Below, one piece after another: positions 9,258 through 9,515 of a DNA stretch of 64,000 nucleotides. Below the pieces are notes generated by a model. It ran no database searches, was not told the DNA's origin, and saw nothing but the letters and a program-made list of their open reading frames with translations. This stretch comes from Escherichia phage WPEC3. The stretch is taken from sequence record PV611058. The stretch is one strand, 5' to 3'. Within the stretch, counting starts at the first letter, position 1. The number at the start of each line of letters is the position of its first letter. A program made the position numbers and the translations under genes.

Positions 9258-9515
9258 TTATCTCATAGATCTATGCCAACAATTACGCGGATCTCTTTTA
9301 AAAGTACTATCATGATCCTCCTGGCAAGTAATACAATACATGCACCCTATAACGGCCTGGCGTCGATTCTCAGGGATTTTATCGCCGCAGTCGCGGCAAT
9401 GTACAAGTGATTCTCTTTGTGCGTTAATTTGCTTTCTAGCGTGGTTAACGGCGGCCTGAATCACTGCATGAATCTCGTCTTGTTCGGCCCCGTCTTTCGC
9501 GTATCCTACTGCCAT
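9258..9515 (-). CDS. DksA/TraR-type C4 zinc-finger protein (85 aa)
   Basis: C-x2-C-G-x-x-IP-x-x-RR-x-A ... C-x2-C signature; SD GAGG. Confidence 0.65.
   Translation of the reverse strand: MAVGYAKDGAEQDEIHAVIQAAVNHARKQINAQRESLVHCRDCGDKIPENRRQAVIGCMYCITCQEDHDSTFKRDPRNCWHRSMR

Follow-up and report, generated by a model that had tools for sequence, protein, structure and literature searches.

A gene on the minus strand of Escherichia phage WPEC3 encodes an 85-residue member of the DksA/TraR C4 zinc-finger superfamily. It lies in the 64,000-nt stretch of DNA analyzed here, referred to below as the window (Table 1). The protein belongs to the YbiI-type branch of the superfamily and is neither a DksA nor a canonical TraR. 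We place it in a sister clade of YbiI found in phages and do not classify it as a YbiI equivalog, because its C-terminal tail has diverged and it scores 79 bits against the YbiI model, for which the cut-off is 96. Analysis of its relatives indicates that this YbiI-type protein probably binds the secondary channel of the host RNA polymerase (RNAP) and thereby shifts transcription initiation.

The zinc-finger gene and its relatives in phages

Translation of the open reading frame (ORF), taken from a program-made ORF list, gives MAVGYAKDGAEQDEIHAVIQAAVNHARKQINAQRESLVHCRDCGDKIPENRRQAVIGCMYCITCQEDHDSTFKRDPRNCWHRSMR. The initial annotation had described a protein of this length carrying the signature C-x2-C-G-x-x-IP-x-x-RR-x-A ... 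C-x2-C, and the signature is exactly present as C40-x2-C43-G44-x-x-I47-P48-x-x-R51-R52-x-A54 ... C61-x2-C64 (in full letters, C40-R-D-C43-G-D-K-I47-P48-E-N-R51-R52-Q-A54 ... C61-I-T-C64). The two Cys pairs are separated by 17 residues, a spacing typical of the family. The 55 nt upstream of the ATG, which include a Shine-Dalgarno sequence, are kept in phages vB_Ec-M-J and E9.1.

A tblastn search with the zinc-finger protein located relatives in 544 phage records, and the full-length protein is retained in 425 phage records (coverage of at least 80%). Pairwise dN/dS values for the gene range from 0.08 to 0.23, its most conserved codons carry synonymous changes throughout, and synonymous sites are saturated between the copies of jumbo and T4-like phages. 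The gene is real and under purifying selection. A 48-residue TTG-initiated ORF located immediately upstream (9515-9661, minus strand), the stop codon of which overlaps the zinc-finger start codon as TAATG, was considered as a gene and rejected, its sequence not being conserved in E9.1. This ORF is poorly conserved between phages and is probably not coding; a 29-residue version of it is annotated in E9.1.

Megablast analysis of positions 8000 to 11000 retrieved 49 phage records. The best match was Escherichia phage Ecwhy_1, with 99.3% identity, which bears out the description of the gene as a phage copy; the next matches were fEgEco12, vB_EcoM_JNE01, 121Q, PBECO4, and others. The matched relatives are Asteriusvirus (Rak2-like) jumbo myophages of 347 to 386 kb, and the window itself derives from a jumbo coliphage of this genus. 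The zinc-finger protein is 98.8% identical to the "C-4 type zinc finger protein" of Ecwhy_1, and the labels already present in sister records also include "DksA-like zinc-finger protein" and "TraR/DksA C4-type zinc finger protein." In T4-like phages, the homologues are located in the tk-rI-mobD-nrdC region.

Table 1. Positions in the window of the zinc-finger gene, its conserved segments, and adjacent elements
Feature	Positions	Strand	Description
Zinc-finger coding sequence	9258..9515	minus	85 aa; ATG 9515-9513; TAA 9260-9258, stop codon included
Conserved N-terminal tip, codons 1-14, MAVG[Y/F]AKDGAEQDE	9474..9515	minus	Alignment A1 and synonymous codon changes
C4 zinc ribbon, codons 40-64, CRDCGDKIPENRRQAVIGCMYCITC	9324..9398	minus	Pfam match to residues 39-68
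Basic C-terminal tail, codons 70-85, STFKRDPRNCWHRSMR	9261..9308	minus	Near-invariant in alignment A1
Shine-Dalgarno sequence GAGG	9524..9527	minus	8 nt 5' of the ATG; read from the sequence
Nearest strong upstream sigma-70-type promoter	9812..9840	minus	TTGACA-N17-CATAAT; 11/12 matches; TG before the -10 element
Weak alternative promoter-like site	9561..9589	minus	TTGAAT-N17-TATTAT; 9/12; consensus match only
Unusually long predicted untranslated leader, ~290 nt	9516..9811	minus	From the promoter at 9812..9840 to the ATG
Perfect promoter	9224..9251	minus	TTGACA-N16-TATAAT; drives the GNAT gene; not part of the zinc-finger gene
GNAT acetyltransferase gene, 118 aa	8838-9194	minus	Pfam PF00583; directly downstream of the zinc-finger gene

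Assignment to the YbiI-type branch

Profile searches recovered the DksA/TraR family, as the initial annotation had proposed. Pfam model PF01258 (zf-dskA_traR) matched residues 39 to 68 with 37.9 bits, above the gathering cut-off of 24.9 (E = 1.8e-9), and PHROG 54 ("DksA-like zinc-finger protein") matched at E = 2e-18. For profile-to-profile comparison, we used an alignment of 46 homologues of the zinc-finger protein (A1) and an alignment of 11 TraR-type proteins (A2), including F TraR, lambda Orf73, VP882 Orf61, and P2-like phage proteins. Since a homologue search with TraR returned close TraR copies only, the divergent TraR-type set was assembled separately by tblastn, and its phage proteins were translated from public records. 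With these profiles, hhalign matched residues 15 to 74 to residues 12 to 71 of TraR (99.5% probability; E = 1.3e-22).

At the subfamily level, all NCBIfam cut-offs were missed. The best model was YbiI/PRK11019 (NF008243; E = 2.7e-22), its match covering residues 1 to 73. The TraR models TIGR02419 and NF010268 gave 49.5 and 32.8 bits, under their cut-offs of 59.7 and 108, and the DksA models TIGR02420 and NF033459 gave 11.9 and 15.2 bits, under their cut-offs of 115.5 and 105. Thus, the label "DksA/TraR-type" holds for the superfamily but extends neither to DksA proper nor to canonical TraR, the tip motif also being incomplete (see below).

The best sequence match among solved structures was E. 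coli YbiI (2KGO; E = 1e-11, residues 1 to 69), and RNAP-bound TraR (6N57, chain 6N57_M, and 5W1S) was matched at E = 2e-6 over residues 18 to 68. The AlphaFold2 model, the pLDDT of which is only 69, comprises a helix (residues 8 to 29), the zinc ribbon, and a second helix (residues 62 to 69). This is the three-part TraR layout of N-terminal helix, zinc-binding globular domain, and C-terminal helix, the last of these being shorter than in TraR. The top Foldseek matches of the model were YbiI and TraR in its RNAP complex, each with a probability of 1.00, and the TM scores against TraR 6N57_M were 0.48/0.55.

YbiI is the best match of the WPEC3 protein in both sequence and fold. The WPEC3 protein and the YbiI-type proteins of E. 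coli and other phages are similar in length (85 versus 85 to 88 residues) and share the motif M-A-x-G-[FWY]-A-x-D-G-A, a C4 zinc ribbon with IPxxRR, and a basic tail ending in [LM]-R. They differ in that identity reaches only ~38 to 50%, the linker preceding the first Cys is one residue longer in the WPEC3 protein, and the WPEC3 gene is located in a phage terminal repeat, as opposed to the bacterial chromosome for YbiI. The helix/zinc domain/helix layout is common to F-plasmid TraR, lambda Orf73, P2 Orf82, and VP882 Orf61, which are RNAP secondary-channel regulators of ~73 residues. In these TraR-type proteins, binding of this architecture to the secondary channel is proven, and TraR and the WPEC3 protein are both small proteins of mobile elements of Gammaproteobacteria. 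Unlike in TraR, the shorter C-terminal helix of the WPEC3 protein is followed by a 16-residue tail. DksA (7KHI and 5VSW) has in common with the WPEC3 protein the C4 signature of PF01258 and the secondary channel as a target, which is a predicted one for the phage protein; the corresponding Foldseek matches were weak. DksA is a protein of ~151 residues that has a two-helix coiled coil with DxxDxA at the tip, as well as ppGpp site 2 residues, and is fully active only with ppGpp, whereas the WPEC3 protein has 85 residues and a single N-terminal helix. The protein is not a DksA because it has no coiled coil.

Zinc ribbon and N-terminal tip

Residues C40, C43, I47, P48, R51, R52, G57, C61, C64, and Q65 are invariant among the 46 homologues of alignment A1, and E49 is at least 90% conserved. 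P48, E49, R51, and R52 are aligned with P45, E46, R48, and R49 of TraR, which, together with K50, bind the beta-prime rim helices and Si3 of RNAP (PMC9239242, PMC6970531). The globular-domain contact residues of the TraR subfamily are therefore present in the WPEC3 protein, except that Q53 replaces K50.

The N-terminal tip is less similar to that of TraR. TraR-type proteins begin with M-x-D-x-x-D-x-A, and all 11 sequences of alignment A2 have D3, D6, and A8. This DxxDxA tip is held to be critical for TraR function: the substitutions D3N or D6N strongly lower inhibition by lambda Orf73, the activity of Xenorhabdus bovienii Gp34, in which D3 is missing, is lower, and an N-terminal extension has been suggested to reduce the activity of VHML Orf8 (PMC9239242). 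The WPEC3 protein begins with MAVGYAKDGA, which fits the YbiI motif. Alignment A1 shows no variation at M1, A2, and G4 and at least 90% conservation at A6, K7, D8, G9, A10, and Q12. Of the top 150 representative clusters, 88 carry the YbiI-type N-terminal motif. In a set of 81 YbiI-type representatives, D8 is present in 71, G9 in 65, and A10 in 75, and the consensus of these clusters is M-A-x-G-W-A-x-D-G-A-V-Q-[DE]-Q-I-D.

D8-x-A10 is placed as D6-x-A8 of TraR, with Y5 (W or F in relatives) at the place of D3. Two of the three positions of the DxxDxA tip are thus kept, and an aromatic residue replaces the first Asp. The distance from D8 to the first Cys is 32 residues in the WPEC3 protein and 31 in 54 of the 81 YbiI-type representatives, the latter being the distance from D6 to C37 in TraR. 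Relative to TraR, 2 to 3 extra N-terminal residues precede the zinc finger, and hhalign of A1 against A2 left the first 14 residues unaligned to TraR. BLASTP proposed another register, in which a 4-residue gap brings D13 opposite TraR D6. This register was rejected, since D13 varies (D, L, or E) within the phage clade; the D8 register was preferred because D8-G9-A10 is nearly invariant and located at the TraR distance from the first Cys.

C-terminal tail

The tail varies little among proteins of alignment A1 that are just 62 to 95% identical overall. The WPEC3 protein does not carry the YbiI tail YNRRGSKDSQLR itself: its own tail has diverged to PRNCWHRSMR, a phage-clade variant of the YbiI tail that has no counterpart in TraR. 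The PRNCWHRSMR clade comprises Asteriusvirus and many T4-like phages, such as Moon, dhabil, IME523, and AmPh_EK29, and YNRRGSKDSQLR is found in bacterial YbiI and in other phage YbiI-type proteins (Kaldavass, SE131, AB-Navy97, and JA29). An intermediate tail, ...HNRKVWHRSMR, occurs in protein P0128. Comparison of these sequences suggests a single ancestral tail module, kept family-wide in YbiI-type proteins and absent from TraR and DksA. A graded series of tails is seen in YbiI-type proteins (P0128 and P0130), in the order YNRRGSKDSQLR, YNRKANYHTQLR, HNRKVWHRSMR, and PRNCWHRSMR.

Different phages encode the tail with different synonymous codons, one example being a TCT/AGC serine switch, and the sequence that follows the gene also varies. 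Synonymous codon changes and differing downstream contexts indicate that the tail and the N-terminal tip are under selection at the protein level. We considered that the tail might be kept at the DNA level because it overlaps the UP-element region of the promoter that follows. This explanation was rejected: T4-like phages, in which the downstream sequence is quite different and other codons are used, conserve the tail to the same degree. AlphaFold2 predicted the tail to be disordered, with low pLDDT.

RB69-like Mosigvirus phages carry a 54-residue derivative of the protein (phrog_25948; ~1453-1617 in both EP02SG and PhAPEC2), in which an unrelated N terminus, MLYDYTGKSEDGVLELLPESAEDDMVV, is fused to IYCVGCQSMHDEIFKREPRNCWHRSMR. 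The derivative keeps only the second CxxC and the conserved tail, and in PhAPEC2 an in-frame TGA is located inside the tail. The derivative represents either a remnant undergoing decay or a tail module that has acquired a new use.

Genomic context

In phage vB_Ec-M-J, the gene (record positions 12349-12606) is located inside an annotated 21,525-bp direct terminal repeat (1-21525). [quoted passage not shown] Since the gene sits in a direct terminal repeat, each packaged genome has two copies of it, and tblastn located it at two places in records that include the repeat at both ends.

The region is a one-directional run of ~50 small ORFs. Fifteen perfect TTGACA-N16-18-TATAAT promoters are present in the window, all on the minus strand, and near-consensus sigma-70 sites number 31 on this strand, which is that of the gene, versus 5 on the other, with a concentration at ~1,300-20,400. 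No terminator-like site was found between the nearest strong upstream promoter, which is conserved in vB_Ec-M-J and E9.1, and the zinc-finger gene. The TATAAT at 9533-9528 abuts the Shine-Dalgarno sequence and is probably not a promoter, as it has no -35 element and its transcript would lack the Shine-Dalgarno sequence.

Early expression, part of the initial annotation, is plausible on the basis of genomic context only, namely, the terminal repeat, the run of small genes on one strand, and the consensus sigma-70 promoters; the location of the 11/12 promoter ~290 nt upstream of the gene is a point against it. In the Rak2-like phage CBB, the equivalent region of small ORFs and RpoD-like promoters was suspected to be early, and the terminal repeat possibly continues it (PMC5259590).

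The predicted leader contains the densest GATC cluster of the window (9679, 9690, 9719, 9735, and 9746), with 5 sites in 72 nt versus a window average of 2.4 per kb. These sites lie in TGATCAA-type repeats, including the inverted repeat TGATCAATTCTTGATCA, and the cluster could be a candidate Dam/SeqA-type or protein-binding regulatory site. In vB_Ec-M-J and E9.1, the leader is conserved over its first ~105 nt and its last ~55 nt, and its RNA fold z-score is -2.9. The leader is not a known RNA family, since a search of Rfam over the whole window gave no matches.

On the downstream side, the -35 element of the perfect promoter of the acetyltransferase gene begins 6 nt past the zinc-finger stop codon. 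The pairing of the zinc-finger and acetyltransferase genes is kept in vB_Ec-M-J, E9.1, and most of the megablast matches but not in T4-like phages.

The minus strand also carries ~20 repeated promoter cassettes between ~1,300 and 20,400 (e.g., 3806-3740, 8213-8150, and 10939-10875), an extent that matches the part of the window corresponding to the ~21-kb direct terminal repeat. Each consists of a TTGACA or CTTGCA -35 element, a spacer of 16 to 17 nt, TATAAT, a conserved "TTTACATCnA," a GC hairpin, a Shine-Dalgarno sequence, and the ATG of a small ORF. The hairpin, located at the transcript start, has the form GGGGAGAA-loop-TTCTCCCC and may stabilize early mRNAs. A 113-residue ORF at 10954-11295 (minus strand) is labeled "DNA ligase" in vB_Ec-M-J. 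It matched a PHROG of unknown function at 3e-56 and a "DNA ligase" PHROG weakly at 3e-9, with no Pfam match; owing to this profile and to a length far too short, the label looks unreliable.

Proposed mechanism and alternatives

We infer the retuning of RNAP, as well as the timing of expression, the binding to RNAP, and the direction of the effect, solely by homology to relatives and from context. In the mechanism that we propose, unmodified host sigma-70 RNAP would transcribe the gene at the onset of infection from the consensus promoters of the terminal repeat. [quoted passage not shown] Open-complex kinetics would then be altered without ppGpp, as for TraR and five phage homologues. This would depress host promoters at which open complexes are short-lived and discriminators are GC-rich, among them those of rRNA and ribosomal-protein genes, and spare phage consensus promoters with AT-rich discriminators. 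Because host promoters would be depressed and phage promoters spared, polymerase and resources would shift to the phage. GC-rich discriminators and short open-complex lifetimes characterize promoters sensitive to DksA/ppGpp. In the phage promoters, the hexamers match the consensus, and the sequence between the -10 element and the start site is AT-rich; in view of the known traits of sensitive promoters, these promoters would be expected to escape inhibition.

There is precedent for this scheme in TraR-type proteins. RNAP binding and regulation of rRNA promoters have been shown for five phage homologues of TraR, one of which, lambda Orf73, slows the growth of the host and increases phage yield ~4-fold (PMC9239242). 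For the YbiI-type branch, the only functional result that we found is the statement, reported as data not shown, that overexpressed E. coli YbiI rescues the amino-acid auxotrophy of a dksA mutant (PMC2613031).

The incomplete tip motif and the unexplained tail leave some probability to two other explanations. In the first, which we consider unlikely, the protein would act as a plug of the channel that excludes DksA/ppGpp, GreA/GreB, or other factors, or it would affect elongation or pausing, with no TraR-like control of initiation. The conservation of the residues contacting the rim helices and Si3 together with the loss of the first Asp of the tip is consistent with such a role, as are the strong selection on a tail that has no TraR counterpart and the observation that rescue of the dksA phenotype by YbiI required high expression (PMC2613031). 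The D8-G-A-E11 sequence of the phage clade also resembles the Gre-factor tip, D-x-x-E-x-A (PMC9239242); however, E11 is not kept in the wider YbiI family, in which V occupies this position in 67 of 81 representatives. TraR homologues with imperfect tips, moreover, still regulated initiation, albeit less strongly (PMC9239242), which argues against this explanation.

In the second explanation, which is quite improbable, the zinc-ribbon protein would have a target other than RNAP, either as a metal or stress factor, a role proposed earlier for YbiI, or as a binder of nucleic acid or another host protein via its basic tail. RNAP binding is a prediction for all YbiI-type proteins, and Blankschien et al. 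favored a role in iron metabolism for YbiI (PMC2613031). Outside the zinc finger, conservation is highest in the N-terminal 14 residues and in the tail; both segments lack TraR counterparts and could also be taken to indicate another partner. A match to the PADLOC candidate PDC-S64 (E = 9e-4) was weak and, at just 16 bits, was disregarded. Against a non-RNAP target, the rim-helix and Si3 contact residues are conserved, the D-x-A pair is located at the TraR distance from the zinc finger, RNAP-bound TraR is the closest relative in fold and sequence after YbiI, and YbiI overexpression rescues a dksA phenotype (PMC2613031).

Finally, a chance ORF or a decaying pseudogene, to which the truncated Mosigvirus derivatives, one with an in-frame stop, might point, can be excluded for practical purposes by the pattern of selection (the dN/dS values and the synonymous changes at invariant residues), in addition to full-length retention in 425 phage records, a good Shine-Dalgarno sequence, and the Pfam match.

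Implications

The gene and the family label that it bears are already known, as is the idea that TraR/DksA homologues of phages retune host RNAP, and phage-borne TraR homologues that reprogram host RNAP were demonstrated in 2022. Since gene, label, and concept are in the public record, the finding is correct but ordinary.

A more speculative view, which we regard as doubtful, is that YbiI-type proteins, including the phage clade, form a functionally distinct secondary-channel branch. The aromatic-x-x-D-x-A tip and the selected tail (PRNCWHRSMR or YNRRGSKDSQLR) would give an effect on RNAP unlike that of TraR and DksA, for example, by blocking host DksA/ppGpp or Gre factors or by contact of the tail with a different RNAP element, and the jumbo phage would deliver a double dose of the protein from its terminal repeats for host takeover. 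The residual value of the finding is modest and lies in the YbiI-type branch itself, which is widespread, with members in many T4-like and jumbo phages as well as in E. coli, and which combines a distinct, altered tip with a selected tail.
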